Shown here one piece after another: positions 35,215 through 54,500 of a stretch of DNA of 64,000 bases; the first letter of the stretch is position 1, and each line of letters starts with the position of its first letter. Both the position numbers and the translations under genes were made by a program. The stretch spans positions 35,932 to 99,931 of the forward strand of contig JBFMBK010000007.1 in NCBI GenBank assembly GCA_040755295.1, written 5' to 3'. Source of the DNA: Bacillota bacterium (GTDB lineage Bacteria; Bacillota; Desulfotomaculia; Desulfotomaculales; Ammonificaceae). The notes beneath the pieces are model-generated. The model ran no database searches, was not told the origin of the DNA, and was given only the letters and a program-made list of their open reading frames with translations.

Positions 35215-36066
35215 TCACCGGCTTGCTTCTTTGTCTATGGCATCGACAAGAGGCGACAGTTCCGTCAAGCGGTTTTCGGCCAAAAGAGCCTGCATGATCT
35301 GAATATGGTTGATAAAATCATGGCGTTGTTTCCTTACTGTGTCAATTTGTTTCCGCATTTCCGCGGCGGGCGCCTCCTGGGCGATTACCGCCGCTTCTCG
35401 TTCGGACAACTGAAGAATCCGCCAGATGATAAACGGCGGGAACAGCAATGCCGCTATCAACACGATAAAGGTGACGGTTTCGGTCGCTCGGTTGGCTTCG
35501 TCAAAACTTGAGCTGAAAAAAAATTCATTAATAACGGCGCCTAAGAGAATTACTTGGATCACCAGAGGCAATACGGTTTTTACACGGAACCCTAAATTTG
35601 CTTGTATCCATAAAAATCCGCCATTTTCTCCGGTAGCTGATATAGGCAAGAATCGCGGTAGGAATATCTATTGAAGGAGGGAAAAGAATTCTTTTAATGG
35701 GTGAAGCGAGGTAGTCAGCGGTAGAAACGCCGAGGACATAGTGCCAGGCAAAGGAACCTCCTACCTGGGTTATCATAGTAATAAATTCAAATAGGAAAAC
35801 GACCAGGAAGACTTTAGGAAGGCGAAATAAAAACTTAATCATTAAGATATCAAGCATAATCGCTATAGCAACTCGTAATGATTGAGGACTGTAGAAAGCA
35901 ACGGTACCGCAAACTCCGGAGATTACGGCAAAAGCCAATATCTATATCTGCTTTCATACACGTTATGCCTGGTGAGAACAAGGGCAAAGGGTAAACACAC
36001 CAGAGGACTCAGAACTGATGTATAAAAAATTAATCCAAAATCAAGCATTGAAGGCGTGTTCACCAT
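35215..36066 (-). pseudogene. decayed AgrC/SpoOB-type sensor kinase: membrane domain plus H-box, at least 2 frameshifts, ATPase domain missing
   Basis: Three consecutive minus-strand frames. The first, 36066 down to ~35925, is my translation MVNTPSMLDFGLIFYTSVLSPLVCLPFALVL... The second, 35938 down to ~35640, is hydrophobic. The third, 35649-35215, ends ..RKQRHDFINHIQIMQALLAENRL..*. No N/G1/G2 boxes follow. Confidence 0.6.
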
Positions 36067-36310
36067 ATGATTCCTTTACCTATCATGAAAATCACCCAAC
36101 CTCTTTAATGTCCTTCCTTAATATCCCAAGTATGATGTATATTCAGAATAAAAAAGTATCTTACCTAAAAAATCTGAATGATTAATTTTTCTTTTTAATA
36201 TTAAAGTACTGGGAAAATACTAGAGCGAGATTTAAAAGCTCTATTTAAGTTCATTGTACTTTGGTGTATTATTTTATACAACAGTGTTTATGTTTTCCAA
36301 GGAGGTCATT

Positions 36311-37075
36311 ATGTCCGACAGAGCTTTTAAGGTTGTGGTCGCGGATGATGATGAACCGACCCGCAGTCTTTTAAAGACCATGCTGGAGACCTTTGAGAGG
36401 GTAACGGTTGTCGGTATGGCCGACAGCGGCAGGGGTTTGCTCAAGCTGGTGGAAGATACAGCCCCGGAAGTGATTTTTGTAGACGTTCAAATGCCTGATC
36501 TTGACGGGTTGAGTGCGGTCTTTCGTCTTCAAAAAGAACACCCGGATGTTTTTGCTGTTTTCATAAGCGCTCACGCTCACTATGCCGCCGAGGCGTTTGA
36601 CCTTGATGCCGTGGATTACGTGGTGAAGCCGCTGAACCGGGACCGAGTCGGGCGGGCACTGGCAAAAGCGAGACGATTCGTTGAGTTGCGATCTATAGTC
36701 GCCGCTGCAGATTTCACGTTGAACGGTCCGGACAATACAAAAAGACTTGTGCTGAAGTGCGGTCATGGCGCAACCGTGGTAAAAACGGATGATATATTTT
36801 TCATTGAAAAAATGGGGAAAAGGTGCATCATCCACACGGACGGCAGCCGGTACGATACTGTGGACAGGCTTTCTTCTATAGAACGACAGCTTGATGCAAG
36901 GTTCTTCCGCTGCCATAAAAGTTTTATCATTAACATCAACCGGGTGGAGAGGGTTATTCCTTACGCGGACCGGGCATACGAGATCTCATTCCGCGGTTAT
37001 CCTTATAAGGTCACGATGCGCCGTGACCGGTTTGAGGATTTCTGCCGGTTAGTCAAGAACGAAAAGAACGCGTAA
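36311..37075 (+). CDS. LytTR-family response regulator
   Basis: Receiver domain (VVVADDDEPT..FVDVQMPDLDG..) plus a LytTR domain (..IFFIEKMGKRCIIHTDGSRYDTVDRLSSIERQL..FFRCHKSFIININ). The ATG at 36311 follows aggagg. Confidence 0.88.
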   Translation: MSDRAFKVVVADDDEPTRSLLKTMLETFERVTVVGMADSGRGLLKLVEDTAPEVIFVDVQMPDLDGLSAVFRLQKEHPDVFAVFISAHAHYAAEAFDLDAVDYVVKPLNRDRVGRALAKARRFVELRSIVAAADFTLNGPDNTKRLVLKCGHGATVVKTDDIFFIEKMGKRCIIHTDGSRYDTVDRLSSIERQLDARFFRCHKSFIININRVERVIPYADRAYEISFRGYPYKVTMRRDRFEDFCRLVKNEKNA

Positions 37076-37107
37076 CAGGTGCCGTCACGAATTCGTGAAG
37101 GGGTCAG

Positions 37108-37953
37108 GTGGCAGTTATGTATTGGCGAATATCAGGCCGGAATGCGGTCTTTATTGTGGCTTTTTCCCAGTTGGTGCTGCTGTTTGTGGCTTATTACGTG
37201 CATTTCCAGGGAAAAGTCGTTTTCTCCCCAGGCCGGCTGGTTGTCCCGGTTGCCTTCGCGGCAAGCATACTGCTCGGTTTATACATCGCCAAGAGAATGG
37301 TTAACCTTTATGAAAAAGATGCTCTACTATCCACCAGAGCCGCTATGGCCGAGAGCTTCACCAGCCTGGCCCAATCGACGTATGCTCAGAACCGGGAGTT
37401 TACACGGCACATAGAGAGGATTTCATCCCTCTGCAGGGAAAACAGAGTTCAGGACCTGTCCGATTACCTCGCAGAAATGTCGGGGAACATCTCCGTGCTT
37501 AACAGCGTGTTGAAGGTGGACAATCCGATAATCGGCGCCCTTTTAAAAGCAAAAGCGACCGAGGCCGATATCAGGCGCATCAAGCTTGAGATCGATGTTT
37601 CAACCTCGCTTGATCATTTAGGGATAAGGGCTCTTGCGGTAGCGCGAATCATCGGCAACCTTATCGACAACGCATTTGATGCGGTTTCCGGTTTACAGGC
37701 GAACAGAAGGGTTGATGTGAGGCTCTACCGGGAAGGACCCCTGCTGCAGATTATGATCAGCAACCAGGGCCCGGCGATAAGTGCGGACGCCGCAAACCTT
37801 ATTTTCAACCCCGGTCACACCACAAAGGGAGAAGGCCACAGCGGCCTCGGACTGCATATAGTAAAGACCCTTACAGAAGAACTGCTCGGCAAAGTCGATG
37901 TTATTTCGGACGAAGCAAAGGGGACGTGTTTTACAGTGACCCTGCCGGCGTAG
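37108..37953 (+). CDS. GHKL sensor kinase (SpoOB/AgrC-type) with 2 TM helices and an atypical H-box
   Basis: N-box IGNLIDNAFDAV, G1 SNQGPAI, G2 GHSGLGLHIV. The H-box region reads AQNREFTRHIE, with Arg where RHDF-type kinases carry the phospho-His. Confidence 0.8.
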   Translation: MAVMYWRISGRNAVFIVAFSQLVLLFVAYYVHFQGKVVFSPGRLVVPVAFAASILLGLYIAKRMVNLYEKDALLSTRAAMAESFTSLAQSTYAQNREFTRHIERISSLCRENRVQDLSDYLAEMSGNISVLNSVLKVDNPIIGALLKAKATEADIRRIKLEIDVSTSLDHLGIRALAVARIIGNLIDNAFDAVSGLQANRRVDVRLYREGPLLQIMISNQGPAISADAANLIFNPGHTTKGEGHSGLGLHIVKTLTEELLGKVDVISDEAKGTCFTVTLPA

Positions 37954-37965
37954 TTTAGAGGTCGG

Positions 37966-37993
37966 GTGAGATGTGAGAGGTGAGATGTGAGAG
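37966..37993. repeat. perfect tandem 14-mer x2 (gtgagatgtgagag) within a GAGGTCGGG-type repeat
   Basis: Read directly: 37966-37979 is identical to 37980-37993, preceded by gaggtcggg. Confidence 0.8.
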
Positions 37994-38249
37994 GAAACCA
38001 AGAATAACCGCGGCATGTATTATATAACCTTACCGGGTTGAAAAACCAAATCCGTTCCACAAGGAAGTTTATTATTTTCCCCGTTGATGCTTTACGCTTC
38101 TACGCAGTATAATGCGGTTGGAGAAAGGCTGCGGCATAGACGACGAATCGCTGCCGATTGGCTTTCCAGCCGTCGTCTTCATAGATGCTCCTGCCGTTAA
38201 ACCGCTGGAGTAATTACTGTATGTTTTTGTTTTAGGAGGAAAATAGCGC

Positions 38250-39836
38250 ATGAGCATCAGGCATAAAATCCTAGCCGGTTATCTCAGCGTGTTTTTGATA
38301 TTTGTGGTTCTGGGTTTCATGGCGCTGTCAAGCATGCACCGGATGCAACGTTCCTATGACGACCTTATTGTTCACCGGGCCGGTACGGTAAGCAAAACAA
38401 AGAATCTTTTACTGGCGGTTGAATATGAGGCTTTGATGCTGCGAACATACCTCCTGACCGGCAGTCGGGAGTATCAAACCGAATTCCGGCGGCAGGCAGA
38501 CCAGGTGGACCGGCGGCTTGAAGAACTCGAGAAGGATCTGCGAACAAGCGATGAAAAAGCGCTTTTTAAGAATTTAAAACAAACGGTAGACGGTTTCACC
38601 GAGGTATACGCGCAGAGCATCGTTGCGGTGCGCGAGCGTCGGGACCTTACGGACCAGGAAAAGCTGACCGAGGTGGTTCGTCTTACGACGGCCCAGCGGG
38701 GTACGGTTCGCGGCGTAATCGCCCAGGGGCAGGCGTTCATCGACTACCAGCAGCAATTAATGGACGAGAAGGCGAAGAACAACGCCAGGCTGGTGAACAG
38801 AATTACCACCGTCGCCACCGTGCTCGGGCTCTTTTGTCTTCTCCTCGGAATCGCTGCGGCTCTTTATATTTCGAGGATGATCGCCGACCCTGTCCGGCGC
38901 ATTGAAGAGCAGGTGAAGCGTATTGCGGCGGGCGACCTGACGCCGCAGGAACTTGAGGTCGCTTCCAGGGACGAGATAGGGCGTTTAGCTCGATCATTCG
39001 GGGTTATGCTGATGAACCTGCGGCGTCTCACCGGAAGGCTTCAAGCCACAACGGAAGAGATGGGCAATTTTGCCGCCGATTTGCGGGAAAAGGCTCAGGA
39101 AGCAGCGGCAGCGTCCAGCCACACCACAGCCGTTCTCAACCGGGCTCTTTCCGCTATAGAGGATGTATGCAGCCGAGCGCAGAAACTGTCCGGGGTTTCA
39201 GAGCGCACCACGGAACAGTCCGAATACATCCAGGAAACGGCGACCCGCGTTTTAAACCAGATGGAATCGACGGTCCGAATCGCCGCCAGGGCCAGCAAGG
39301 GGGTTCGGGACCTCAGCGCGGCGCTGACGGATGTAAAGCAGATTATCGAGTTCATCTCGCAGTTTGCCGATCAGGCTGACCTCCTGGCCCGGAAGGCGAC
39401 AGACGAACTCACGGTGGAAGGAAACAGCGGTCAGACGCAAGGAGTCTTCGTGGATATGGCGCATGAAATCCGGACGCGCGCGCAGGAAGCCGCCCGCACC
39501 ACCCTTGATGTCGCAGGCCTGATCACGGCGGTACAGGAACATACGCGCGAGGTTATTTCCTCGGTTGACGAGGACTGCCGCCTGGTGGGCGAAGGGCGCA
39601 GCGCTACAAGGAAAGCGACGGAGGCCTTAAGCGGGCTCGTGAAGGAAGTGCGGGAGGTCACCGCGCAAATAAAGGAGACAGCGGAATCCAGCCGTGACTT
39701 CAGCGCCGCGCTTGAAGGTGTAACATCCGCTTCGAAGGCGCAGACGGCGCTGGTGGAAGGGGTCGCAAAGGCCTGCAGCATGCTGGACGACCTGGTCGTC
39801 GAACTGCAAGAGGCGCTGGCTGCGTTGAAGCTTTAG
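38250..39836 (+). CDS. MCP-like transmembrane protein (4HB-type sensor, HAMP, degenerate signalling domain)
   Basis: TM1, a helical periplasmic-type domain, TM2 and HAMP (ADPVRRIEEQVKRIAAGDL..DEIGRLARSFGVMLMNL), then a long coiled coil. The hairpin-tip consensus ([18 protein letters not shown]) is replaced by QADLLARKATDELTVEGNSGQ. Confidence 0.7.
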   Translation: MSIRHKILAGYLSVFLIFVVLGFMALSSMHRMQRSYDDLIVHRAGTVSKTKNLLLAVEYEALMLRTYLLTGSREYQTEFRRQADQVDRRLEELEKDLRTSDEKALFKNLKQTVDGFTEVYAQSIVAVRERRDLTDQEKLTEVVRLTTAQRGTVRGVIAQGQAFIDYQQQLMDEKAKNNARLVNRITTVATVLGLFCLLLGIAAALYISRMIADPVRRIEEQVKRIAAGDLTPQELEVASRDEIGRLARSFGVMLMNLRRLTGRLQATTEEMGNFAADLREKAQEAAAASSHTTAVLNRALSAIEDVCSRAQKLSGVSERTTEQSEYIQETATRVLNQMESTVRIAARASKGVRDLSAALTDVKQIIEFISQFADQADLLARKATDELTVEGNSGQTQGVFVDMAHEIRTRAQEAARTTLDVAGLITAVQEHTREVISSVDEDCRLVGEGRSATRKATEALSGLVKEVREVTAQIKETAESSRDFSAALEGVTSASKAQTALVEGVAKACSMLDDLVVELQEALAALKL

Positions 39837-40232: not shown

Positions 40233-40748
40233 ATGAAGAAAGTAATTGCCATATTCAGCGTCCTGCTCCTTGTCTTAGGTATACCGGCAACAGCCCTTGC
40301 GGCTACGGATACAACCAATGTTACGGGAGACATCGCAGAAACGATTTCCATCAGCACGCCGGCAACGATCGCTCTGGGCGCCCTGACGGTAGCAGCGAAC
40401 AACACGAGCGCCGACCAGACGCTTACCGTTTACGCCAACAACTCGAGCAAGACGGTGTCTCTCACGGTGTGTGACAACAATCAGGTTGCCGACATCGGGA
40501 AAATGGCGTCAGGGGCAAATATTCTGACTGACCCGCTTAACGTAAAAGGCGGGGACGTGGCCGCTTACACCGCCCTGCCCGAAGTCGCAGCCAGTACGAT
40601 CACCTTGGAGAATGCGGGTGCGGTAAACGGCGCCACGGGACAGTACCAGGTTACTGATTTCAGCGTGAGGCAGTACGTGTACTGGAGCGATGAGCAGGCT
40701 GCCGGTTACGCCATCACCCTGCTCTTTACAACCGGTTACACCACTTAA
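40233..40748 (+). CDS. secreted 171-aa protein consisting only of the CTD shared with the three giant proteins
   Basis: Signal peptide MKKVIAIFSVLLLVLGIPATALA/AT. The mature part aligns by eye along its length with the last ~135 aa of the giants (ISISTPATIALGAL~ISIIAPDGVSGWSL; VRQYVYWSDEQAAGYAITLLFTTGYTT~FKQTVGWVDQPLSGGYSYKIVVTFTASVTV). Confidence 0.85.
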   Translation: MKKVIAIFSVLLLVLGIPATALAATDTTNVTGDIAETISISTPATIALGALTVAANNTSADQTLTVYANNSSKTVSLTVCDNNQVADIGKMASGANILTDPLNVKGGDVAAYTALPEVAASTITLENAGAVNGATGQYQVTDFSVRQYVYWSDEQAAGYAITLLFTTGYTT

Positions 40749-41299
40749 CGGTTTGGGGGCGGTTATCGCCCTTCAGGATACCGGGCGTGAGGGCTTGAAG
40801 ACTTAACGGTGCCGGGATGCGCAGAATGCTGACCGGCACCCTCCAATTGGCCTGTAAGGTTCCGTCGGCGGTGGAAACGTTGAGCGCCCCGGCAACATGG
40901 GAACCCCTGCCGTACTCAGGAACATTCACGCGAAGCAGGTGTCTAAGTGATGTGAGGGTTGTTTCGATTAAGCCGGTACAGATAAAGACAGGCGGAACTT
41001 AGAAGATAAAAAGGGAGGTCGTGTGGCAGGGGAGGTGTTTACAATTCCGAGGAAGCGCCCGGACGGTGGGTTCGGTTTCGTTCATTAACTTATGGCCTCT
41101 CCCGCTTTAAACCATTTGATTGTCGCGGAGGGGAATGCCGTGAACGGACAGCCGCCTGGTTATAAGACAAGTCCATGTGCGACAACTTCCGGATTCGAGC
41201 CGAATGCCGGCAGGGTTGTCTTTTGCTTTTTACGGGCGGGTTCTGCATGTCAGACGCAATTATTCTACCATTATCGGGCTTTGGCAAGGGGGTAAAAAG

Positions 41300-42688
41300 T
41301 TGAGAAAGACGTTATCAGGGATTGTCGCTGTTTTGACGTTTATGTTAATTGTCGCCGTCTTTGGGGTTGAACGGGCCGGCGCGGCCTTCAGCGTCGGCGG
41401 CGCCATGGTGGACATGGAGGCTTCTCCCGGAACATATAAACATGTAATGCAGGTAAGCCTGGGACCCGACGACGCCGCCACCGATGTCCAGGTGATACTG
41501 GGGGGCCTCGGCCAGCAGTCCGACGGGGTCGTGAAGGTCCTGTCGCCGGCTGAAGACACCAGCCCTTATTCGGCATGCGGCTTCATCAGTCTGGACCAAA
41601 GCCGGTTTCACGTCGGACCGGACCAAAGCGTTCAGTTCAACGCCTTTATTAACATTCCGGAGAGCGTGGGCGCGGGGGGCAGGTACGCCGCTATCCGGGT
41701 CTGCACCGTTCCCTCGGGCGGGGGTACGCTGCAGGTTGCATCCGGGGTGGACATCCCCGTCAAGCTCACCATTAAAGGAACGAGTCTGACGCATACCGGT
41801 GAGATTAACGGACTCGGCGCCGGACCCGTAACCGTAGGAAAACCGGTAGAGATATCTACAACATTCAGAAACACCGGAAACCACCATTTCAAAATTAAGG
41901 GCTTTGTCACGGTAAGCAACGCCGACGGGCAGACGATCGGCAGCGCATCCATCCCTCTTACGGCTGCCAACGTGATTCCGACCATGTCCCGGCTGCTGAG
42001 ATCGACCGTTACGCCCGTAAGCGTTCTCACTGCAGGTGAATACACGATACATGCCAAGATAATGGCTGAGGACGGCGCCGTGCTGGACGAGGCCGAGACC
42101 AAATTCACCGTGAACCCGGAGGAAGACTTCACAGATATCGCCGGGCACTGGGCTGAGAATGATATTAAAACAATGGCGCGACTGGGCATCGTCAGGGGCA
42201 TGGGGGATAAAAGGTTCAACCCCTCGGGTGCGGTAACACGGGCGCAGTTCGCCGGTTTTCTTATCCGTAGTTTAAACATCCAAGAAACCCGGCCTTCTGA
42301 GGGCTATTTCGAGGATGTACCCTCGGACGCCTGGTACTATGGGGCGGTGGAGACGGCCTACGCCAACGGACTTGCCTTCGGTTACGGAGACGGGACCTTT
42401 AAGCCCGATGCGAACATAACGAGGGAGGAACTTGCGGCGATGGTGGTGAGGGGCCTTAATAAAGGTGGAAAGACAGTGGCCCCGGCGGACCATAAGGTTC
42501 TGTCGCAGTTCGTAGATAAGTGGAAAATAAAACAGTGGGCGCGGGATTCGGCAGCTATCGCCGTCAGGGAAGGCCTCATAAAGGGTCAGGAAGGCAAGCG
42601 GTTTGCGCCGTCTAAAAACGCTACCAGGGCGGAAGCGGTTGTAATGCTGAAGCGGATGCTGGTCAGCCTTGGAAGACTGTCCGGATGA
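41300..42688 (+). CDS. S-layer-homology (3x SLH) anchored protein with two-beta-domain N-terminal region (DUF916/DUF3324-like), paralogue 1
   Basis: TTG at 41300 after aaggggg. Signal peptide LRKTLSGIVAVLTFMLIVAVFGVERAGA/AF. The C-terminal SLH repeats are FTDIAGHWAENDIKTMARLGIVRG.., FEDVPSDAWYYGAVETAYANGLAFGYGDGTFKP.. and ..WARDSAAIAVREGLIKG. It is a paralogue of 48240-49697. Confidence 0.85.
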   Translation: MRKTLSGIVAVLTFMLIVAVFGVERAGAAFSVGGAMVDMEASPGTYKHVMQVSLGPDDAATDVQVILGGLGQQSDGVVKVLSPAEDTSPYSACGFISLDQSRFHVGPDQSVQFNAFINIPESVGAGGRYAAIRVCTVPSGGGTLQVASGVDIPVKLTIKGTSLTHTGEINGLGAGPVTVGKPVEISTTFRNTGNHHFKIKGFVTVSNADGQTIGSASIPLTAANVIPTMSRLLRSTVTPVSVLTAGEYTIHAKIMAEDGAVLDEAETKFTVNPEEDFTDIAGHWAENDIKTMARLGIVRGMGDKRFNPSGAVTRAQFAGFLIRSLNIQETRPSEGYFEDVPSDAWYYGAVETAYANGLAFGYGDGTFKPDANITREELAAMVVRGLNKGGKTVAPADHKVLSQFVDKWKIKQWARDSAAIAVREGLIKGQEGKRFAPSKNATRAEAVVMLKRMLVSLGRLSG

Positions 42689-42827: not shown

Positions 42828-45800
42828 ATGGTACTCTTGATGCGGCAAAAACCGAAGCATAGAAACCGCTATTTGTTATTGCGGCAAAGTCTGATGACAG
42901 CCGTAATGGTTGCTTGCTGCTTTATCTGCACCGGCACCGCCGCCCTGGCCGCGGGCTGGAGGACCGAGACGGTGGACAGCGGCGGGGTTGTCGGAGAATA
43001 CACGGGCATAGCCGTAGATTCGTCCGCGTACGCGCACATCAGCTATTACGACGGCACCAACACCGACCTGAAGCACGCCTACCAGGACAGCAGCGGCTGG
43101 CACACCGAGTTCGCGCAGGCATCGGCCGCAAACGATATCGGACAATGGACGTCGATAGACCTGGATGGGTCCGATTACCCATACATAAGCCACTACGGCG
43201 CGAGCGGCAACAACCTGAAATATACCTACCAGAACGTTTCGGGCTGGAACAACGAGGGACCGGATTCGACGGGCGACGTGGGCAAGTACACCTCCACAAA
43301 AGTGGATGCGTCGAATTACCCACACGTCAGTTATTACGACGCTACCAACATCTACCTGAAGTACGCTTATAAGGATGCCGGCGGCTGGCACATAGAGACG
43401 GCGGACACCGGTGCGGGGACATGGACTTCCCTGGCGCTCGACTCGTCAGGCTACCCGCACATCAGCTACAAATATTCCGGGACCAGTGATCTGAGGTACG
43501 CCTATAAAGACGCCGGCGGTTGGCACATCGAGAGCGTGGATACCGCGGGCAACACCGGGGGCCACACCGCTATCGTCCTGGACGGCTCGAACTACCCGCA
43601 CATCAGCTATCGCGACATCACCAACGCCAAATTGAAATACGCCTACAAGGACGGTTCGGGCTGGCATATCGAAGACGTGACCGTGGCCGGCAACGATGCA
43701 TGGTATACCTCGATTGCGCTTGATTCGTCGGGTTATCCGCATATCAGTTACTATGACTACGTAAACTTTGACCTCGGTTACGCTTATAAGGACGGCTCGG
43801 GCTGGCACATCAGTACCGTGGACGGCACAGGGGACGTCGGGGCGTACACCGCGATAGCGCTGGTGTCCGATATCCCCCGGATAAGCTACTACGACGGTAC
43901 CAACGGCGACCTGAAGTACGCCTGGTGGGACCCCGATACCGTCGCGCCTACGGTACAGAGCACCGACCCGGTTGATAGCGCTACCGATGTGATCGTCGGG
44001 AAAACAATTACCGTAACCTTCTCTGAGAATATCCAGGCCGGCTCGGCTTACGCGAGCGTAAACATAAAGGACCAGACCGGTGCGGATGTGGCGTTTGCCA
44101 AGAGCATCGCCGGCGATGTCCTCACCATCGACCCGACGAGCAATTTGAGTTATAGCGTGAGTTATACCGTGTATGTGCCCGCGAATTCAATAAAGGACAT
44201 GGGGGACAACGGCCTGGCGGCCGACTGCACGTTCAGTTTTACGACCGAAGCCGACACAACGCCGCCGGCGGTGCAGAGTACGGACCCGGCCAACGGCGCT
44301 GCCGGCGTGGTCGTGGGCAAAACGATCACGGTCACATTCAGTGAAAACATCCAGGCGGGCGACAATTACGCTCAAATCACATTGAAGGATAATAACAACA
44401 ATAATGCCGCTTTCACCAAGAGCATCGCCGACGCGGTGTTGACCATCGATCCGACCGGCGACCTCAACAGCAATTTAACCTACACCGCATCGATTCCCGC
44501 GGGTGCCATCAAAGACTTACTCAACAACGCGACTACAAGCGAATACAGCTTTAGCTTTACCACCGAGAATACGGGTTCCACCGCGACGGTGGACAGCACG
44601 GGCAACGTCGGGCAGTACACATCCATCAAGGTGGACGGGTCAAACAATCCTCGTATCAGTTACTACGACGTCACCAACGCCGACCTGAAGTACGCTTACA
44701 AGGACGGCAGCGGCTGGCACACCGAGACTATAGATAGTACAGGCACTGTGGGTTTGCATACCTCACTTGCCATTGACGCTTCCGGTTACCCCAGGATCAG
44801 TTATTCCGACAATACGAACTATGACCTGAAGTACGCTTACAAAGACGCCGCCGGCTGGCACACGGAAACCGCCGATAGTGGCGGCAGTGTGGGGCAATAC
44901 TCTTCTATTGCTCTTGACGGTTCCGGCTACCCGCATATCAGCTATCATGACTGGATTTTCAACTACGACCTCAAGTACGCTTACAAAGACGCCGGCGGCT
45001 GGCATGCCGAAACGGTGGATGGTGCAGGGAGTACAGGTACATATACCTCCATCGCGCTTAGTGTTTTGAATTACCCTTATATAAGCTACTACGATTACAC
45101 CAACTATGACCTGAAGCTGGCTTACAAGGACGCCGGCGGGTGGCATACCGAGACCGTGGACGGCGCGACCTACATGGTGGGTTCTTATACCTCCATAGCG
45201 CTTAATGGTTCCGGTTATCCGTGCATCAGCTACTATGACGATTCCAACGACGATCTGATGTACGCCTATAAGGACGCCGGCGGCTGGCATACAGAGACCG
45301 TTGACAGCACGGGCAGCGTGGGATCGTATACATCATTGGCCCTCGATACTTCCGGTTACCCGCATATCAGCTATTATGACGGCAGCCCACTCGATTTGAA
45401 ATACGCTTATAAGGACGGCTCCGGGTGGCATCTTCAAACCCTGGACAGTAACGGCACCGTAGGGCAATATACGTCGATAGACATCGACTCATCCAATTAC
45501 GCGCACATCAGCTATTACGACACGACCAACGGTGACCTAAAGTATATCTGGACGGGCGACACCAGTGCGCCGACGGTGAGCAGCACGGGCCCGGCATCCG
45601 GCGCGACCGGCGTACTCGTCGGTCAGACAATTACCGTCAATTTCAGCGAAAACGTGCAGACCGGGGACAATTACGCAAGCATCAACCTGAAGGATGAATC
45701 CGGCAATGACGTGGCCTTTGTCAAAAGCATCAACGGTGCGGCGCTTACGATCGACCCGACCAGCAACCTTGATTACAGCGTAACCTACACGGTCTACGTC

Positions 45801-48227
45801 CCGGCCGGCTGCGTCGAAGACATGGTAGGCAGCGCCCTGGCCGCCGACAACAACTTCAGTTTCACCACGGAGGCGGACACTTACGGGCCCACGGTGAGCA
45901 GCACCAATCCCGGTAACGGTACGGGTTGCGTGCCGACAGGCCAAACCATTACCGTTACCTTCGGTGAAAACGTCCAGGCGGGAAGCAGCTATGCGAGCAT
46001 CAACCTGAAAGACCAGTACGGCAATAACACGGCTTTTGGCAAGAGCATCAACGGCCAGGTGTTGTCCATCGACCCTACCAGCAACCTTAAGTATTCGGTG
46101 ACCTACACGGTCTATGTTCCCGCGGACTCGATCGACGACCTGCTGGGGAACGGGACGGACAGCGACTATACCTTCAATTTCACCACCGGAACCGGCACCG
46201 GTGACATGACGATCGTTGACGGCACGGGCTCGGTGGGGCAATATGCGTCGATAGCACTTGACGGTTCCGGCTACCCGCACATCAGTTACTACGACAGCTT
46301 CGTGAACTACGACCTTAAGTATGCCTATAAGGACGCCGGCGGCTGGCACACCGAGACGTTGGACAGCGCTGGGAGCGTGGGTACGTATACTTCTTTGGCT
46401 CTCGACGCATCCAATTATCCGCACATCAGTTATTACGACGGCACGAACTACGACCTCAAGTACGCCTATAAGGACGCCGGCGGCTGGCACACCGAAACCG
46501 TGGACAGCGCGGGGAGCGTGGGACAGTATACGTCGATCGCCCTTGATAATTCAAATTACCCGTATATTAGCTATTACGACGCTACTAACTATGATCTCAA
46601 GTATGCGTATAAGGACGCCGGCGGCTGGCATGTAGAGACCGCGGAGGGCGCCAACAGCGTGGGAATGTTTACGTCCATATCCCTTGATGCGTCGAACTAC
46701 CCGCACATAAGCTACTACGACAACGTACCCAACTACGATCTGAGGTACACGTACAAGGACGCCGGCGGCTGGCACGCCGAAACCGTGGACAACAGCGCTA
46801 CCTATCCCGGCCAGTACACGTCGATAAAGCTGAACGCGTCCGGTTACCCCCACATCGGCCATTACGACGGTTCCAGCGCCGACCTCAAGTACGCCTATAA
46901 AGACGCCGGCGGCTGGCACTTGGAAACCGTCGACAGCGCGGGGAGCGTCGGATCTTATACATCATTGGATCTCGACGCGTCGGACTACCCGCACATCAGT
47001 TATTTTGACGGCGGTAACTGGGACCTGAAATACGCCTTTAAGGACGGCAGCGGGTGGCATACATACACGGTTGATTGCACGGGGATGGTCGGACAGTTCA
47101 CGTCGCTGGTCCTCGACACGAACGACGTGGCGCATATAAGCTACTACACGGTAACAAACGCCGACCTAAAGTACGTTAGTTGGTCGCCGGGAAGCAGCCC
47201 GGCGGTAGACAGCACCGACCCGGCGGGCGGGACCGTTGACGTGGTGGTCGAAAAAACCGTTACCGTTACCTTTGACGCGGACATTCAGGCCGGCGACAAC
47301 TACGCCCAGATAGACGTGAAGCACCAGAACGGCACAAGCATTCCCTTTACAAAGAGTATCGCGGGCGCGGTGCTGACGATCGACCCGACCGGCAACCTGG
47401 CCAACAGCGTCAGCTACACGGTGTACGTCCCGGAAAACGCGGTGAAAGACCTAAACAACAACGGACTGGCCGACGATTACACCTTCAGCTTCACCACCGA
47501 GGCGGACGCCGGCGCGCCGACGGTGCAGAGCACCGACCCGGCAAACGGCGCCACCAGCGTGGCGATAGACAAGACCATAACCGTCACCTTCAACGAGGAC
47601 ATCCAGGCGGGTGACAACTACGGACTTGTCAACCTGAAGGACCAGGGGGGCGTCGATGTGGCGTTTACCAAGAGCATCGCCGGCGCGGTGTTGACCATCG
47701 ACCCGGACAGCGACCTCAGCAACAGCGTTACGTATACCGTTTACGTTCCAGCGGGCTCGGTGAAAGACCTTACAAACAACGCCCTTGCTGCCGACTACAC
47801 CTTCAGTTTTACCACCATAAGCGGGTCGACCACCATCAGCATCATCGCGCCGGACGGCGTCAGCGGTTGGAGTCTGGACCCGTCCGCCGGCCAGCCCGAG
47901 ACAGAGTCCGGCACCCTTTCCGTTACCGTTGATCCTGCCGGCACACCCTGGGAGGTCACGGCGGCCGACAGCGACACCGTCAATACCAACGGGAGGATGA
48001 CCGCCTGGAACGGTTCCTACGACACCGACAGCAAACTGCAGAACGCGATGAAGATTGCGGGAGATTACGAGGTGACTTTGCCCAGCGGCGGTAAGATCGC
48101 CGACGGCGCCGGGGGAGGGTCCGTCCCGGTGACCTTCAAACAGACGGTGGGCTGGGTGGACCAGCCGCTATCGGGGGGCTACTCCTATAAGATTGTTGTC
48201 ACCTTTACCGCATCGGTCACGGTGTAG
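42828..48227 (+). CDS. giant secreted protein 1: [7-bladed propeller - Big_5 - Big_5] x3 - CTD
   Basis: The ORF is open from 42735. The ATG at 42828 gives the signal peptide MVLLMRQKPKHRNRYLLLRQSLMTAVMVACCFICTGTAALA. It has 21 copies of the ~47-aa repeat (G.YTSIALD.SGYPHISYYD..N.DLKYAYKDAGGWH.E.VD) and 6 Big_5-type Ig domains (P.V.STDPANGA.GV...TITVTFSENIQAG.NY..I.LKD....V.F.KSI.G.VLTIDP...L....YTVYVP....KD...N.LA.D..FSFTT). No SLH, LPXTG or TM anchor. Confidence 0.9.
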   Translation: MVLLMRQKPKHRNRYLLLRQSLMTAVMVACCFICTGTAALAAGWRTETVDSGGVVGEYTGIAVDSSAYAHISYYDGTNTDLKHAYQDSSGWHTEFAQASAANDIGQWTSIDLDGSDYPYISHYGASGNNLKYTYQNVSGWNNEGPDSTGDVGKYTSTKVDASNYPHVSYYDATNIYLKYAYKDAGGWHIETADTGAGTWTSLALDSSGYPHISYKYSGTSDLRYAYKDAGGWHIESVDTAGNTGGHTAIVLDGSNYPHISYRDITNAKLKYAYKDGSGWHIEDVTVAGNDAWYTSIALDSSGYPHISYYDYVNFDLGYAYKDGSGWHISTVDGTGDVGAYTAIALVSDIPRISYYDGTNGDLKYAWWDPDTVAPTVQSTDPVDSATDVIVGKTITVTFSENIQAGSAYASVNIKDQTGADVAFAKSIAGDVLTIDPTSNLSYSVSYTVYVPANSIKDMGDNGLAADCTFSFTTEADTTPPAVQSTDPANGAAGVVVGKTITVTFSENIQAGDNYAQITLKDNNNNNAAFTKSIADAVLTIDPTGDLNSNLTYTASIPAGAIKDLLNNATTSEYSFSFTTENTGSTATVDSTGNVGQYTSIKVDGSNNPRISYYDVTNADLKYAYKDGSGWHTETIDSTGTVGLHTSLAIDASGYPRISYSDNTNYDLKYAYKDAAGWHTETADSGGSVGQYSSIALDGSGYPHISYHDWIFNYDLKYAYKDAGGWHAETVDGAGSTGTYTSIALSVLNYPYISYYDYTNYDLKLAYKDAGGWHTETVDGATYMVGSYTSIALNGSGYPCISYYDDSNDDLMYAYKDAGGWHTETVDSTGSVGSYTSLALDTSGYPHISYYDGSPLDLKYAYKDGSGWHLQTLDSNGTVGQYTSIDIDSSNYAHISYYDTTNGDLKYIWTGDTSAPTVSSTGPASGATGVLVGQTITVNFSENVQTGDNYASINLKDESGNDVAFVKSINGAALTIDPTSNLDYSVTYTVYVPAGCVEDMVGSALAADNNFSFTTEADTYGPTVSSTNPGNGTGCVPTGQTITVTFGENVQAGSSYASINLKDQYGNNTAFGKSINGQVLSIDPTSNLKYSVTYTVYVPADSIDDLLGNGTDSDYTFNFTTGTGTGDMTIVDGTGSVGQYASIALDGSGYPHISYYDSFVNYDLKYAYKDAGGWHTETLDSAGSVGTYTSLALDASNYPHISYYDGTNYDLKYAYKDAGGWHTETVDSAGSVGQYTSIALDNSNYPYISYYDATNYDLKYAYKDAGGWHVETAEGANSVGMFTSISLDASNYPHISYYDNVPNYDLRYTYKDAGGWHAETVDNSATYPGQYTSIKLNASGYPHIGHYDGSSADLKYAYKDAGGWHLETVDSAGSVGSYTSLDLDASDYPHISYFDGGNWDLKYAFKDGSGWHTYTVDCTGMVGQFTSLVLDTNDVAHISYYTVTNADLKYVSWSPGSSPAVDSTDPAGGTVDVVVEKTVTVTFDADIQAGDNYAQIDVKHQNGTSIPFTKSIAGAVLTIDPTGNLANSVSYTVYVPENAVKDLNNNGLADDYTFSFTTEADAGAPTVQSTDPANGATSVAIDKTITVTFNEDIQAGDNYGLVNLKDQGGVDVAFTKSIAGAVLTIDPDSDLSNSVTYTVYVPAGSVKDLTNNALAADYTFSFTTISGSTTISIIAPDGVSGWSLDPSAGQPETESGTLSVTVDPAGTPWEVTAADSDTVNTNGRMTAWNGSYDTDSKLQNAMKIAGDYEVTLPSGGKIADGAGGGSVPVTFKQTVGWVDQPLSGGYSYKIVVTFTASVTV
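42954..43931 (+). repeat. propeller array 1 of giant 1 (7 blade repeats, velcro-type closure)
   Basis: It starts with an isolated GWRTETVD strand and ends after DLKYAWWD without one. Seven ~47-aa units were counted by eye. Confidence 0.75.
44577..45560 (+). repeat. propeller array 2 of giant 1 (7 blade repeats)
   Basis: TATVDSTGNVGQYTSIKVD... through ...DLKYIWTGD. Seven units counted by eye. Confidence 0.75.
46200..47185 (+). repeat. propeller array 3 of giant 1 (7 blade repeats; most uniform copies)
   Basis: MTIVDGTGSVGQYASIALD... through ...DLKYVSWSP. Adjacent units share long identical DNA stretches, for example tataaggacgccggcggctggcacaccga at 46325 and 46466. Confidence 0.75.
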
Positions 48228-48239
48228 GGGGAGCGTATC

Positions 48240-49697
48240 ATGTGTCTAAAGTCTTTTATAGCATGCCTGCTGGCATTTTCACTAAGCCTTGCGCCAGCAA
48301 ACACTTGTTTTGCGAATCCCGGTTTGGTGGTCGGTGGGGCCACCATCGACAGGGAGGTCGGTCCCGGTATTTACAGCCACGTAATCGCGGTCAGCCTGGG
48401 GCAGGGAGACCCGGCCACCGACGTCCAGGTTAATGTGAAGGGTTTCGGGCAGAAATCCGACGGCGTCCTGGAACCTGTTTCGCCTGCTCTTGACACCGGT
48501 CCGTACACGGCGCGCGGCTTTATCAACGTAGACAGCGCGTCGTTTCACCTTGATCCGGGAGAATCGAAGGACGTTAACGTCACTATCAACGTTCCCGGCG
48601 GCGTCGGTGACGGAGGAAGGTACGCGGTGATAAGCGTTTGTTTGTCTCCTCCCGCCGGGGGAGACGTCAATGTGGCGTCCGGCATAGTCGTCCCCGTCGT
48701 ATTGACCATTCAGGGGAGTGAGTTTGTTCACAGCGGGGAGATAAGCGGCCTGTCCGCCAATGTTGCAAACGAGGGACAGTATGTAGAAATAATGACCGGT
48801 TTTCGAAACACGGGGAACCATCACTTTAAAATTAAAGGAGAGGGTACGGTATACAGCGCCGGCGGACAGGCGCTCGCAACGATAAGCGAGCCGCTTGCCG
48901 CTTCTTCATTGATCCCCGCCATGTCCATGCTGCTTAAGGCAACTTACGCGCCGGCGGGAGGACTCAGCCCGGGTAATTACTCGGTCCTTTCTAGGGTGAT
49001 GCTTGAGGACGGCACCCTGCTGGACGAAGCCACCGGGCAGTTTACGGTGACTGTTAAGACGCCCGGACCCGCAGGCGGCGGTTACTCAGGTTTGCCGGGG
49101 AGAAACCCAAATGTCAATACGCCATTATCCCCGGCATTTAACGATATCGCCGGGCACTGGGCTGAAAGCGACTTAAAGGTAATGTCCGGGTTGAGAATCG
49201 TCCGCGGGGTCGGCGGCGGAAAGTTCTGTCCGGACAGGCCGGTTACCAGGGCGGAGTTTGCGGCCTTTTTGATCCGGAGCCTGGGTATCGAAGAAGTCCA
49301 ACCGAAGGGCGGTCATTTCAAGGATGTCCGGGACGGCGATTGGTATTACGGGGCGGTGGAAGCGGCTTTTAAGGCGGGACTGCTGCGGGGATACCCGGAT
49401 GGTTCCTTGCGGCCGAACGCCCGGATTACCAGGGAAGAGATCGCCGCAATCCTGGCACGGGTTTTGACCCAGAACCAGAAACAGGCAACAACCGATATCG
49501 AGACGGTGTTAGCGCGATTCACCGATCGGATAAGGATCGCCATTTGGGCCCGAAAGGCAGCCGCGCTGACCGCGCAGGAACGCATAATCGAGGGCCGGAG
49601 CGGTGGGCTGTTTGCGCCAAAAGAGAACGCGACCCGGGCGGAAGCGGTTGTCCTGCTGAAACGGATGCTGGTCAGCCTCGGGAGGCTGTCTTGTTGA
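48240..49697 (+). CDS. SLH-anchored (3x SLH) protein, paralogue 2
   Basis: ATG 12 nt after the giant-1 stop. Signal peptide MCLKSFIACLLAFSLSLAPANTCFA/NP. The domain order matches 41300-42688 (..GRYAVISV.., ..FRNTGNHHFKIKGEGTV.., SLH FNDIAGHWAESDLKVMSGLRIVRG..). Confidence 0.88.
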   Translation: MCLKSFIACLLAFSLSLAPANTCFANPGLVVGGATIDREVGPGIYSHVIAVSLGQGDPATDVQVNVKGFGQKSDGVLEPVSPALDTGPYTARGFINVDSASFHLDPGESKDVNVTINVPGGVGDGGRYAVISVCLSPPAGGDVNVASGIVVPVVLTIQGSEFVHSGEISGLSANVANEGQYVEIMTGFRNTGNHHFKIKGEGTVYSAGGQALATISEPLAASSLIPAMSMLLKATYAPAGGLSPGNYSVLSRVMLEDGTLLDEATGQFTVTVKTPGPAGGGYSGLPGRNPNVNTPLSPAFNDIAGHWAESDLKVMSGLRIVRGVGGGKFCPDRPVTRAEFAAFLIRSLGIEEVQPKGGHFKDVRDGDWYYGAVEAAFKAGLLRGYPDGSLRPNARITREEIAAILARVLTQNQKQATTDIETVLARFTDRIRIAIWARKAAALTAQERIIEGRSGGLFAPKENATRAEAVVLLKRMLVSLGRLSC

Positions 49698-50049: not shown

Positions 50050-51294
50050 TTGAAACCATCAAAACCCAAAGTCGAAGTAAACGGTTGGACAACCAGGCGG
50101 TTGACCTGGCGTGGTTCCCTGATCTCGGCCGTTGTGTTTGCGCTTGCGCTCGTTGCCGCGTTTACGGACGGCGTGGCCGCAGCCGGCGCCTGGAACATTG
50201 AAACGGTGGACAGCGGGGGAAGTGTCGGGAAGTGGACCTCTATGGCTATTGACCCGGCGGGATCCTCCCACATCAGTTACTACGACCGGACCAACGGGGA
50301 CCTGAAATACGCCCGCCAGGACGGAGGCGCGTGGGTCATTGAGTTTGCGAAACAAGCCGGCGCCAACGTGGGGAAGAGCACGTCGGTCGCGCTCGACGCG
50401 TCCGGTTACCCGCACATCAGTTACTGTACCGGCGGTACACCCACTAAATTAATGTACGCTTATAAAGACGCTTCCGGTTGGCATTCCGAGCTCGTCTGGG
50501 GAGGTACGGTAGACGTCGGCGAATACAACTCGATAGCGGTAGACGCGGACGGATACCCCCACATCAGCTTCTACAATTCCCAGGGCCGTTTGATATATGC
50601 GTACAAGGACGCCGGCGGCTGGCATTTCGAGGGGGTGGACGCATCGGTGAATGTCGGCGGCGCTTGGAATTCCCTGGTCCTCGACAGTGCCGGCAACCCG
50701 CATATCAGCTACAAGCGCATCACCTGTTGGTCAAAAAGAACCTACAATTGGACCCTAAAGCGCTGGATCTATAAGGAGTGGCTCGAACACAATCTGGCAT
50801 ACGCTTACAGGGACGGCGCCGGCTGGCACGTTGAAATCGTGGACAGCGGCAACAGAATGGGCCCGTATGACCACCTGATAGATACTACTTACGTGGAGGA
50901 AATGGAAAAGCCGAGAACGGGCAGCCACGGCTCGATATGCCTTGACGCCTCCGGTTTACCGCATATCAGCTACCGCGGCGGCGCGGCCTTGAAGTACGCT
51001 TATAAGGACGCCGGCGGCTGGCACGTCGAAAAGGCCGATGATGCAGCTACGGCCAATTTCACTTCAATAAAAGTGGGGGGTTCCGGCAGGCCGCAAATCA
51101 GCTATTACGACATTGTAAATTGCGATCTGAAGTATGCTACGAGGGATGCTTCCGGCTGGCTCATTGAAACGGTAGACTCCATCGGTGTTGTCGGCAAGTA
51201 TTCGGCCCTGGCGCTGGACGCCGGCGAGAATCCCCGCATCAGCTATTATGACGAGACAAACGCTGATCTGAAATACGCCTGGCAGGCCCCGTAA
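50050..51294 (+). CDS. secreted/membrane-tethered stand-alone 7-bladed propeller protein (same repeat family, no Ig, no CTD)
   Basis: TTG start after aaaggagagg, then a hydrophobic N-terminal segment SLISAVVFALALVAAFTDGVAA. There are seven blade repeats, one of them carrying a ~35-aa insertion (..KRITCWSKRTYNWTLKRWIYKEWLEHN..). Confidence 0.85.
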   Translation: MKPSKPKVEVNGWTTRRLTWRGSLISAVVFALALVAAFTDGVAAAGAWNIETVDSGGSVGKWTSMAIDPAGSSHISYYDRTNGDLKYARQDGGAWVIEFAKQAGANVGKSTSVALDASGYPHISYCTGGTPTKLMYAYKDASGWHSELVWGGTVDVGEYNSIAVDADGYPHISFYNSQGRLIYAYKDAGGWHFEGVDASVNVGGAWNSLVLDSAGNPHISYKRITCWSKRTYNWTLKRWIYKEWLEHNLAYAYRDGAGWHVEIVDSGNRMGPYDHLIDTTYVEEMEKPRTGSHGSICLDASGLPHISYRGGAALKYAYKDAGGWHVEKADDAATANFTSIKVGGSGRPQISYYDIVNCDLKYATRDASGWLIETVDSIGVVGKYSALALDAGENPRISYYDETNADLKYAWQAP

Positions 51295-51326
51295 ATGCGG
51301 GTGTAAACTAACAGACGTGAGTAAAA

Positions 51327-51358
51327 AGAGCACCGCGGGCGCGGTGCTCTTTATTTTG
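51327..51358 (+). terminator. rho-independent terminator
   Basis: agagcaccgc / gcggtgctct GC-rich stem followed by ttatttt. Confidence 0.75.
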
Positions 51359-51558: not shown

Positions 51559-54500
51559 TTGAAAGCTGGTCGAACTATGGTTCTCGTAAGGTGGGTAACC
51601 CGTTTCGCTTTCAGGTGTTGTCTGCCCAGACGCAGAATGGTACTGGGGACGGCGCTTTTTTTCTTTATACTTGCGGTTGTTGGGACGTGTGACGTTGCCT
51701 TGGCGTTTCAGACTCCGGGATACTGGGCAACGGAGTACGTCGCCTACGAGGGGCACACCGTAGGAAGGTTTTCATCGCTTGTACTTGACGGGTCAGGAAA
51801 TCCCCACATCAGCCATTACGATGCGACTAGCGGCGACCTGCTCTATTCATACGAAGACGGCTCAGGCTGGCACACCGAAAACGTGGACGGCGCCGGGAGC
51901 GACGTGGGGAAGTACACGTCCATCGTCCTTGACGGCAGTGGTTACCCCCATATCAGCTACTACGACACCACCAACGGCAACCTGAAATACGCTTACAAGG
52001 ATGCCGGCGGCTGGCACGCGGAGACCGAGGACCAGGACACGGCCGGCAACGTCGGGCAATATACGTCGCTGGCCTTGAACGGGTCCGGGTATCCATGCAT
52101 CAGTTACTACGACGTTAGCAACACCAATCTCAAGTATACCTATAAAGACGCCGGCGGCTGGCATGCCGAGAACGCCCATGGTTCGGCCAACGATGTTGGG
52201 AAGTACTCGTCCATGAAGCTGAACGCGTCCGGGTACCCCTGTGTCGGCTACTACGATGCGACGGCCGGCGACCTGAATTACGTCTATAAAACCGCCGGCG
52301 GCTGGCAGGCGCCCGCCCAGGTGGACGGCGCCACGAACAACCAGGGGCAGTACTCGTCGCTGGCGTTTAACGCCTCCGGGTATCCGTGCATCAGCTACAT
52401 CGCCGTTGCCAACAACAATATCAGGTACGCCTGGTGGGACGGCGCAGCCTGGAACAAACAGGCCGCATCCGCCGGGATCTTTCAGGGCACGGATACGTCC
52501 CTCGCCTTTGACAACAGCGATCTGCCTGCGATCAGTTATTGCGATTTGTCCGGTGACCTGAGTTACGTGTACAAAGACGCCGGCGGCACCTGGTGGTCTC
52601 AACACCCGAACGTAGCTTGTGGATCAACTTATCAAACCTCTTTGAAATTCGACGCTGACGGCAACCCACGCATCAGCTGTTACTACTCGACCACAGGGAT
52701 ATTAGGTTATGCTCGGTGGGTCTACGATGCCGCTGCGCCGACGGTACAGAGCACCGACCCGGCAAACGGCGCCACCGGCGTGGCGCTTAATAAAACCATT
52801 ACCGCCACTTTCGACGAGAACATTCAGCAGGGCGCCAACTGGAGCAGCATCGCCCTAAAAGACCAGGCCGGCGCCGACGTTGCTTTTGCCAAGAACATCG
52901 CCAACAGCGTCCTTACCATTGACCCGTTTAGCAATTTCAACTACGGCGTGACCTACTGGGTGTACGCCGTGGCCGGTTCGGTAAAGGACATGGCCGAGAA
53001 CGGTTTGGCGGGCGACTACGTGTTCAGCTTTACCGCCGTGGCTGATACGACGGCCCCTACCGTCAGCAATACGAACCCTTCTAACGGCGCCATGTACGTT
53101 CCCCTGACCAAGACGATAACCGTCACTTTCAACGAGAACATCCAGGCCGGGGACAACTACGGCAGCATTACCTTGAAGGACAGTGCGGAAACAACCGTGG
53201 CTGTCACCAAAAGCATCAACGGTGCCATACTTACAATCGACCCCGACGGCAACCTCGACTATAGCGAAACCTATACGGTGCGGCTTCCGGCCGGTGCTAT
53301 CGAGGACGTGTGGGGGAACGGCCTTGCCGGTGACTACACCTTCAGCTTCACCACGTCAGGCTGGTGGACCGAGACCGTGGACGGCGCAAGTGCCAACGTG
53401 GGGCAATGGACTTCGATTAAGATCGATGCTTCCGGTTATCCGCATATCAGTTATTACGACACCACCAATACCGATCTTAAATACACTTACCAGGACGCCG
53501 GCGGCTGGCACACCGAGACGATCGACGGCGCAGGTGTCAGCGTGGGGCAGTATACGTCCTTGGCCCTTGATACTTCCGACTATCCGCGCGTAAGCTATTA
53601 CGACACGACCAACGGCGACCTAAAGTATGCATATAAAGACGGGTCTGGCTGGCACACTGAGCAGGCGTCCGGCGCCGGCGTCAACTCGGGTTTATACACC
53701 TCAATAATTCTTGATGCGTCCGGCTACCCCCATATCAGCTACCTTGAGTGGTACAACTCTGGTCCATACGGAGAACCTTTATATAATCTCAAGCATGCTT
53801 ATAAGGACGCCGGCGGCTGGCACACCGAGACGGCGGACGGCGGTGATTGTTTCGGCGACACTACTTCGATCGACCTGGACGCGTCCGGTTATCCCCACAT
53901 CAGCTATTGCAGCGCGATATACGATGTGTGGCAGGATACTTATGTCGCCAACCTCAAATATGCGTACAAGGACGGGTCGGGGTGGAACTTGAGTGCCCCT
54001 GATAGTGCGGGTGACATCAGCGGTCACTGGCCGTCTCTGACCCTGGATGATTCTGATTATCCTCATATAAGTTATCAAGATAGCGCCCACCTGGAGTACG
54101 CATATAAGGACGGTAGCGGCTGGCATTACACCACTGTCGATAACTCAGCGGGTTCATGTACGTCTATCAGCCTGGACGTTTCCGGGTATCCGTGTATAAG
54201 TTACAGCGGCGGGCTTAAATACGCCTATAAAAACGCGTCCGGCTGGCACACGGAAACCGCGGACAGCGCAGGCTACTATACGTCGTTTGCCTTCGACACG
54301 TCCGGCCTCCCTCATGCCAGCTACTGGGACAACGCCAACGGCGACCTGAAGTATGCTTACCGGCCGGCCGATGTCTACCTGCCGACGGTACATAGCACCA
54401 ACCCTGCCGATGCGGCCGTTAACATCCCGGTAACCAAGACCGTCACGGTCACCTTCAGCGAAAACGTGCTGGCAGGCGCCAACTACGGACTGATCACCCT

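Follow-up and report, generated by a model that had tools for sequence, protein, structure and literature searches.

The seven-bladed PLL/PHL lectins (PropLec7A, IPR007132) are secreted bacterial proteins with two Trp residues in each inter-blade fucose site (PMC5584973). The six-bladed RSL/AAL lectins (PropLec6A, IPR012475), of which RSL is a trimer of two-blade chains, also have their binding sites between blades, and the RSL pocket consists of Pro14, Arg17, Glu28, Trp76(31), and Trp81(36) (PMC3466270). The seven-bladed PL25 and PL42/GH145 enzymes belong to the Pfam family BNR_4; the PL24, PL25, and PL42 propeller enzymes have blades of unequal length, a deep cleft, and a single catalytic set of His, Tyr, and Arg (PMC8377490, PMC13193363). 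Finally, in cluster 16 of the predicted fibrillar adhesins (Monzon et al. 2022), which has thousands of homologues, repeat stalks carry an uncharacterised domain at the N terminus or head. In jackhmmer searches this domain overlaps with BNR_4, its model is similar to the seven-bladed propeller of integrin alpha-IIb, and it carries an InterPro fucose-lectin superfamily annotation; the authors left its function ambiguous (PMC9210967). Here, we describe nine repeat arrays in four proteins, the giants G1, G2, and G3 and the stand-alone secreted protein S, encoded in a 64,000-nucleotide stretch (the window) of contig JBFMBK010000007.1 from an uncultured Bacillota bacterium. Each array is predicted to form a seven-bladed beta-propeller. 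We lean, if only modestly, toward reading these as multivalent, noncatalytic, lectin-like propellers on the immunoglobulin (Ig)-like stalks of surface giants that would be tethered through S-layer homology (SLH) proteins of the same locus.

Nine arrays of seven units, each predicted to form one propeller

By anchoring on the motif P[HR]ISY, we counted 63 copies of a ~47-aa unit in four plus-strand open reading frames (ORFs; 21 + 7 + 21 + 14), with two divergent units entered by hand after the anchoring. The units form nine arrays of exactly seven (Table 1). Over blades 1 to 6 their spacing has a median of 47 aa (range, 40 to 87), and the 46 regular units give the consensus xGxVGxYTSIALDxSGYPHISYYDxTNxDLKYAYKDAxGWHxETVDx. 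The first element of every array is a W..E.VD strand and the last is DLKYA[WY]. As a chance control, one unit was used as a phmmer query; it returned 63 domain matches in the four proteins, whereas 50 residue-shuffled controls gave none. An initial annotation, made from the DNA alone, had described nine arrays of seven ~47-aa repeats, each starting with an orphan GW..E.VD strand and stopping after DLKYAW. This description was borne out in all arrays, the consensus was reproduced, and the coordinates agreed within a few bases.

The 63 blades of the window share one consensus, and their pairwise identity was ~50% regardless of array or position. Blades in the same position (50%) were no closer to each other than other pairs were (49 to 50%), and we therefore rejected whole-propeller duplication with position-specific blades.

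We modeled the first array of G1 (G1a) with AlphaFold2 from an alignment of 128 sequences, comprising the nine window arrays and 119 homologues. The model had a predicted local distance difference test score (pLDDT) of 96.7, a predicted template modeling (TM) score of 0.94, and 28 strands (7 x 4); it replaced a single-sequence run of the array with a pLDDT of 64. A Foldseek search of the PDB placed the seven-bladed lectins PLL3, PLL2, and PHL at the top (8q81, 6rgg, and 5mxe among them; TM score, 0.74 to 0.79; E, 3e-16 to 1e-14; ~340 aligned columns; 11 to 16% identity). Next came CV39L (TM score, 0.71) and then seven-bladed GH145/PL42 proteins (0.65 to 0.68), with six-bladed AAL-type lectins, RSL, and sialidases lower down (0.52 to 0.64; 0.52 to 0.60 for the AAL-type lectins and sialidases). 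The best neighbors, at TM scores of 0.66 to 0.79 over ~340 columns, were all seven-bladed propellers. In the 128 family members, the units ran in groups of 7 (57 arrays) or 13 to 14 (50 arrays). Thus, seven is the structural quantum. Together, the model, the neighbors, and the run lengths predict that each seven-unit run folds as one closed seven-bladed beta-propeller with four-stranded blades, one unit to a blade. This is the fold that the initial annotation had proposed, and the AlphaFold check that it suggested gave no other fold or blade number. In many relatives, from Chloroflexota as well as other phyla, 14 units follow one another without a spacer and so make two back-to-back propellers.

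We assign VG.YTSIALD to strand A, PHISYYD to strand B, DLKYAYKD to strand C, and GWH.E.VD to strand D. In the model, only a 2-residue turn connects the DLKYAYKD strand to the GWH.E strand, and the C and D strands therefore lie in one sheet. Since the arrays start with a D-type strand and end with a C-type strand, the ring could close only if the two termini shared the last blade. The strand order and the array ends thus point to a probable velcro closure, with the D-type strand at the N terminus filling out the final blade, most likely in a 3 + 1 split.

In the canonical propeller topology, the D-A and B-C loops share one face. By this topology, we infer that the opposite face holds the two termini together with the conserved hairpins D..G.PH and D.GGW. 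In PHL, fucose is bound on the side that corresponds to the face of the termini and conserved hairpins (PMC5584973). The variable positions -12, +7, and +10 (numbered from the Pro of PHISY as 0) and all insertions are confined to the D-A and B-C loops. Several of the loop insertions are rich in Trp and Tyr, and long ones are rich in Trp, Tyr, and Lys, for example KRITCWSKRTYNWTLKRWIYKEWLEHN and CDYYWDEFWNYDGD. Such insertions may elaborate one face of particular propellers.

Relationship to known propeller families

The initial annotation had placed the repeat in no named family, which proved essentially right. When the four window proteins were scanned against Pfam and NCBIfam at E <= 1, no model matched the repeat, nor did any well-characterised Pfam repeat family; the only matches were to Big_5/CopC on the spacers. 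When we searched the PDB sequences with phmmer of the array and with a nine-array profile, we obtained only chance matches and designed TIM barrels (7mcc, 7smj, and 8r8n; E, 1e-4 to 1e-5). We rejected the barrels as repeat-bias artefacts.

The window propellers share with the PLL/PHL lectins seven four-stranded blades of ~47 aa in a short torus, near-equivalence of the blades, and secretion by bacteria. They differ in sequence, with 11 to 16% identity and no Pfam match to the repeat at E <= 1, and neither phmmer nor any of three profiles (E <= 1 to 10) recovered PLL/PHL chains from the PDB sequences. They also differ in architecture: the PLL/PHL lectins are single-domain soluble oligomers, whereas the window propellers are modules in multi-propeller giants.

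A profile of the 128-sequence family matched RSL by hmmsearch at E values of 3e-8 to 2e-6, in a search where false matches to TIM barrels reached 3e-5. Using hhalign with two other alignments, we obtained the same register, in which PhIsYyd.tN.dLkYayrD..GW of the family corresponds to PSI(R17)VYTANNGKITE(28)RCW(31)DGKGW(36) of RSL. In this one register, reached by weak but consistent matches, the family and the RSL/AAL lectins would have in common the motif P-x-I-x-x-Y...N-G-x-[LI]...D-G-x-G-W. These lectins also gave the highest identity among the structural matches (17 to 21%), at TM scores of 0.52 to 0.64; they have six blades, whereas the window arrays have seven in 9 of 9 cases. At the positions equivalent to the RSL pocket, the 128 sequences conserve Pro (0), Ser (+3), Tyr (+14), and Trp (+22, 100%), while the commonest residue at +17 accounts for just 21 to 26%.

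We also asked whether the propellers could be catalytic polysaccharide lyases or glycosidases, like the seven-bladed PL24, PL25, and PL42 (GH145) enzymes of the BNR_4 kind. The top three PDB matches of a 47-position unit profile were all GH145/PL42 chains (E, 0.07 to 0.19), and these carry the motif TS...D..G.P.I in register in as many as five blades (e.g., TSMSADASGNPYIATYW..YRIVWHDGQMWHNRQV). The structural similarity noted above extends to BT3686, FoRham1, and the PL24/PL25 ulvan lyases, all with seven blades (TM score, 0.56 to 0.68), and about 53 of 120 listed homologues have a precomputed BNR_4 match. However, BNR_4 (PF15892) gave no match in the four window proteins at E <= 1. In the homologues the matches are sums of weak ones over the last 50 to 90 of 272 profile positions (~177 to 270), and no single stretch passes alone. 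In a weak alignment, His110 of BT3686 falls on Thr, and by position count His90 falls on Gly, if the chain numbering is that of the paper, as we assumed. In contrast to the clefted lyases (PMC13193363), the blades here are of minimal size (47 aa) and their loops are short. Finally, unlike those of the BNR_4 enzymes, the window blades are equivalent: among the 128 sequences, no position is conserved in one blade alone, so there is no single asymmetric pocket. We therefore consider a catalytic role improbable.

On the tests that we ran, the family is distinct in sequence from PropLec7A, 6A, and 7C and from BNR_4, and the defining binding or catalytic residues of those families are absent from it. 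The sequence links to RSL/AAL and to GH145/BNR_4 are consistent leads backed by structural matches, not proof. From its published description, cluster 16 of the predicted fibrillar adhesins resembles the window proteins and is possibly the identical family.

A lectin-like reading and its alternatives

The initial annotation had suggested a conserved ligand-facing surface that was either lectin-like or mineral/polymer binding. Of the features that we examined, the Pro, Ser, Tyr, and Trp at the RSL-pocket positions stood in favor of a lectin-like face. The Arg, Glu, and Trp of the fucose site are lost, and the His of GWH, which had been taken as invariant, is only 36 to 54% conserved across the family. 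A lectin-like conserved face is thus plausible on these residues, and a pocket may be present at the RSL-equivalent place with other lining residues.

Each of the seven blades conserves the same positions across the 128 sequences. This sevenfold equivalence fits the multivalent propeller lectins and argues against one asymmetric active site. The propellers would then be multivalent, noncatalytic binding heads for a polysaccharide or another repetitive surface ligand. There could be up to seven equivalent sites per propeller, giving 21, 21, and 14 per giant; with that many equivalent sites, binding would be of high avidity.

Several observations weigh against this lectin-like reading. No ligand is known for any family member. 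The repeat unit has a single conserved Trp, that of the GW motif, and with one Trp per blade the two-Trp pocket of PLL/PHL cannot exist. Of the RSL residues the repeat keeps only Pro14 and Trp36/81; Arg17 is replaced by Ser, Glu28 by Tyr, and Trp31/76 by a hypervariable position, and therefore the canonical fucose site is absent. The conserved D..G.PH and D.GGW motifs are in tight hairpins that resemble structural Asp-box turns, so their conservation may reflect folding, not binding. The repeat-profile E values are overstated: artificial-intelligence-designed TIM barrels matched at 1e-4 to 1e-5, and the values are therefore inflated. Last, gene neighborhood is the only basis for the proposed tether formed by the C-terminal domain with the SLH proteins.

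Some of these points would be expected if the propellers were structural or protein-binding modules with no glycan ligand, either rigid beads of an S-layer-associated or sheath-like lattice or docking platforms. Propellers are common as protein-interaction scaffolds, and conserved motifs in tight hairpins are typical of fold-stabilising turns. The locus supplies SLH proteins and a small subunit with a domain common to the giants, and the canonical sugar-binding residues of both RSL and PLL are absent. However, lectins and carbohydrate-active enzymes are the nearest structures, clearly ahead of the rest. In addition, some homologues are fused to the carbohydrate-binding modules CBM6/35, to dockerin, or to cohesin, which are polysaccharide contexts, and multivalent ligand binding would suit seven equivalent blades whose loop positions are hypervariable. 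We therefore regard a structural or protein-binding role as unlikely, though it deserves serious attention.

Extent of the family

We found that the family is large. A word-indexed search gave at least 3389 proteins at E <= 1e-3 among 8000 candidates, and an exhaustive profile search of 1.84 billion representatives at 50% identity returned 30,095 proteins at E <= 1e-3, with 10,822 still present at E <= 1e-30. Several propellers per protein are found in many of the 30,095, whose lengths reach 6384 aa. A scan of species-representative genomes found 178 relatives, and the best 80 of these are nearly all from metagenome-assembled genomes (MAGs). Among these 80, the bacteria include Anaerolineae and other Chloroflexota, Bacillota, Patescibacteria, Fermentibacteria, and others, and the archaea include Methanospirillum, Methanoregulaceae, Methanobacterium, Hydrothermarchaeota, and Promethearchaeota; the closest relative is from a deep-mine MAG. 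In the listed homologues, the partner domains also include the type IX secretion system (T9SS) tail, PKD, fn3, and SpaA-like domains; all of the partners serve as stalks, anchors, or carbohydrate-binding modules, and no catalytic domain was fused to the propeller. We found nothing on DUF7253 in the literature.

The fold and the general design, a propeller head and an Ig-like stalk on a surface protein, are already known, and our results do not overturn current views. That the family is an undescribed and very widespread class of symmetric seven-bladed lectins (a further PropLec7 class) with a new surface display system is a tentative proposal, and on balance we doubt it. If it were true, an inter-blade pocket lined by Pro, Ser, Tyr, Trp, and one hypervariable residue would replace the Arg/Glu/Trp fucose site and would offer new, diversifiable ligand specificities in uncultured anaerobes (Chloroflexota, methanogens, and Asgard archaea). 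The small secreted subunit and the giants would share a C-terminal assembly domain, with the SLH proteins as tethers. Our analysis as a whole also offers a testable hypothesis for the attachment of uncultured anaerobes to polysaccharides or to one another.

This family exceeds 30,000 clusters at 50% identity and extends across Chloroflexota, Bacillota, methanogens, Asgard archaea, and candidate phyla, but it lacks a curated model, a solved structure, and a known ligand; its members are currently unannotated or mislabelled BNR_4. Its definition as a seven-bladed, lectin-like propeller would be a clean seed for Pfam/InterPro. The near-perfect sevenfold symmetry is relevant to studies of propeller evolution and to neolectin engineering, and S is a natural minimal experimental construct.

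Architecture of the giants

If the propeller is abbreviated as P, Big_5 as B, and the C-terminal domain as C, the order after the signal peptide is P-BB-P-BB-P-BB-C in G1, P-BB-P-B-P-B-C in G2, and BB-P-BBB-P-BB-C in G3. Signal-peptide-like hydrophobic N termini are visible in all four proteins, and in G1 the segment ends ALA|AGW. Thus, two features of fibrillar adhesins, the signal-like N termini and the Big_5 stalks, are present; no anchor lies within the giants, and SLH proteins are encoded adjacent to them. The window comes from a Bacillota MAG, with the NCBI locus tags AB1500_07000 to AB1500_07020 among its proteins.

All of the Big_5 spacers also match CopC (PF04234; E, 1e-18 to 1e-24) and, weakly, NCBIfam copper_CopC. 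These matches bear on a further alternative, close to the mineral binding that the initial annotation had suggested, in which the repeated His, Tyr, and Asp would bind a metal (e.g., Cu or Fe) or mineral surfaces in a subsurface organism. The window consensus has seven conserved His, Tyr, and Asp per propeller, and the origin of the closest relative in a deep mine would suit such a role. However, the CopC matches overlap Big_5 and probably reflect the Ig-like fold that the two domains share. The Pfam and NCBIfam scans of the window proteins gave no metal-binding family or motif, the Foldseek structural neighbors included no metal-binding proteins, and the His after GW is poorly conserved across the family, as described above. 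We thus hold metal or mineral binding to be very improbable.

By hhalign, the C-terminal domain shares homology with the small secreted protein that opens the locus (probability, 86%; E, 5e-6). A homologue search with the domain found two proteins only, and the domain and the small protein are confined to a few related Bacillota MAGs. No convincing Pfam match at E <= 10 was obtained with the C-terminal domain, with the small protein, or with the N-terminal regions of the SLH proteins, and PDB sequence searches with the last two returned nothing. By analogy with a pilin and its tip adhesin, the shared domain suggests an assembly or docking domain common to the giants and the small protein. The giants would be held at the cell surface through this domain, with the SLH proteins and the 171-aa protein taking part. 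We had suspected a WxL or DUF916-like system; the Pfam scan at E <= 10 did not support it.

Locus and neighborhood

Two paralogous SLH proteins, each with three C-terminal SLH repeats, flank G1 and are candidate wall anchors of the locus and its giants. Their ~300-aa N-terminal region has the motifs GRYA.I.V and FRNTGNHHFKIKG. The features of the locus are collected in Table 1.

Table 1. Propeller locus features, in nucleotide positions of the window
Feature	Position	Strand	Evidence or remark
Small secreted protein, 171 aa, head of locus	40233-40748	+	Syntenic in L001, L002, L044
SLH protein 1, ~300-aa N-terminal region and 3 SLH repeats	41177-42688	+	Pfam SLH, E 3e-41
Giant 1 (G1), 1830 aa	42735-48227	+	ORF; Pfam Big_5, E 2e-137; own hidden Markov model (HMM) map
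Propeller G1a (array under study), 7 blades	42951-43931	+	Motif and HMM map; AlphaFold2, 28 strands
Propeller G1b, 7 blades	44568-45557	+	HMM score 523, profile positions 2-328
Propeller G1c, 7 blades	46194-47186	+	Motif and own HMM map
Big_5 (PF13205, SbsA-type Ig-like) spacers, 17 domains in total		+	Pfam and own HMM map
Big_5 in G1	43944-44567 (pair), 45567-46190, 47196-47819	+	
C-terminal domain, ~135 aa	47820-48224 (G1), 55987-56397 (G2), 61173-61577 (G3)	+	Conserved in six giants
SLH protein 2, paralogue of SLH protein 1	48240-49697	+	Pfam SLH, E 4e-35
S, stand-alone secreted propeller protein, 414 aa	50050-51294	+	AB1500_07020, annotated hypothetical protein
Propeller of S, 7 blades	50185-51288	+	Long insertions: B-C loop of blade 4, blade 4/5 junction
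Long insertions in S	50698-50790 (blade 4), 50857-50931 (blade 4/5 junction)	+	
Terminator-like hairpin after S	51325-51352	+	12-bp stem, then T-run
Giant 2 (G2), 1613 aa	51559-56400	+	ORF, Pfam, own HMM map
Propeller G2a, 7 blades	51721-52722	+	Blades 5-7 most divergent
Propeller G2b, 7 blades	53359-54366	+	Aromatic-rich B-C loop insertions in blades 3 and 4
Propeller G2c, 7 blades	54676-55674	+	Motif and own HMM map
Long insertions in G2	~53750-54000 (G2b, blades 3-4), ~54900-54950 (G2c, blade 2)		
Big_5 in G2	52735-53358, 54379-54684, 55681-55986	+	
Terminator-like hairpin after G2	56451-56478	+	11-bp stem, then T-run
Giant 3 (G3), 1596 aa	56790-61580	+	ORF, Pfam, own HMM map
Propeller G3a, 7 blades	57600-58595	+	Motif and own HMM map
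Propeller G3b, 7 blades	59532-60542	+	Motif and own HMM map
Big_5 in G3	56982-57596, 58602-59525, 60549-61172	+	

The gene order methyl-accepting chemotaxis protein (MCP), small protein, SLH protein, giants, SLH protein, giant, GNAT, and sigma-70 recurs in a JGI metagenome contig, there with 2 + 3 + 2 propellers. Part of this order is present in other Bacillota MAGs, and the locus is syntenic in related Bacillota MAGs (loci L001, 1-21406; L002; L014; L026; L037; L044; and L051). The number of propellers per giant varies among the syntenic loci, and L044 encodes a 642-aa protein with the minimal order propeller, Big_5, C-terminal domain. Since strong terminator-like hairpins directly follow S and G2, G2 and G3 may be separate transcription units.

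Signalling genes lie on both sides of the locus. Those upstream, on the plus strand (31248-39836), encode a KaiC-like ATPase, a PAS histidine kinase, a LytTR response regulator together with a GHKL kinase, and the MCP. Those downstream (61755-63719) encode a GNAT acetyltransferase and a sigma-70 family factor on the opposite strand. Synteny in L001 extends to the genes for the MCP, GNAT, and the sigma factor. Farther away on the plus strand, a YqfD stage IV sporulation gene (17364-18680) is present, which indicates a spore-forming lineage. Two tRNA genes (5476-5546 and 5680-5752, plus strand) lie downstream of a Glu/Gln-tRNA synthetase gene.

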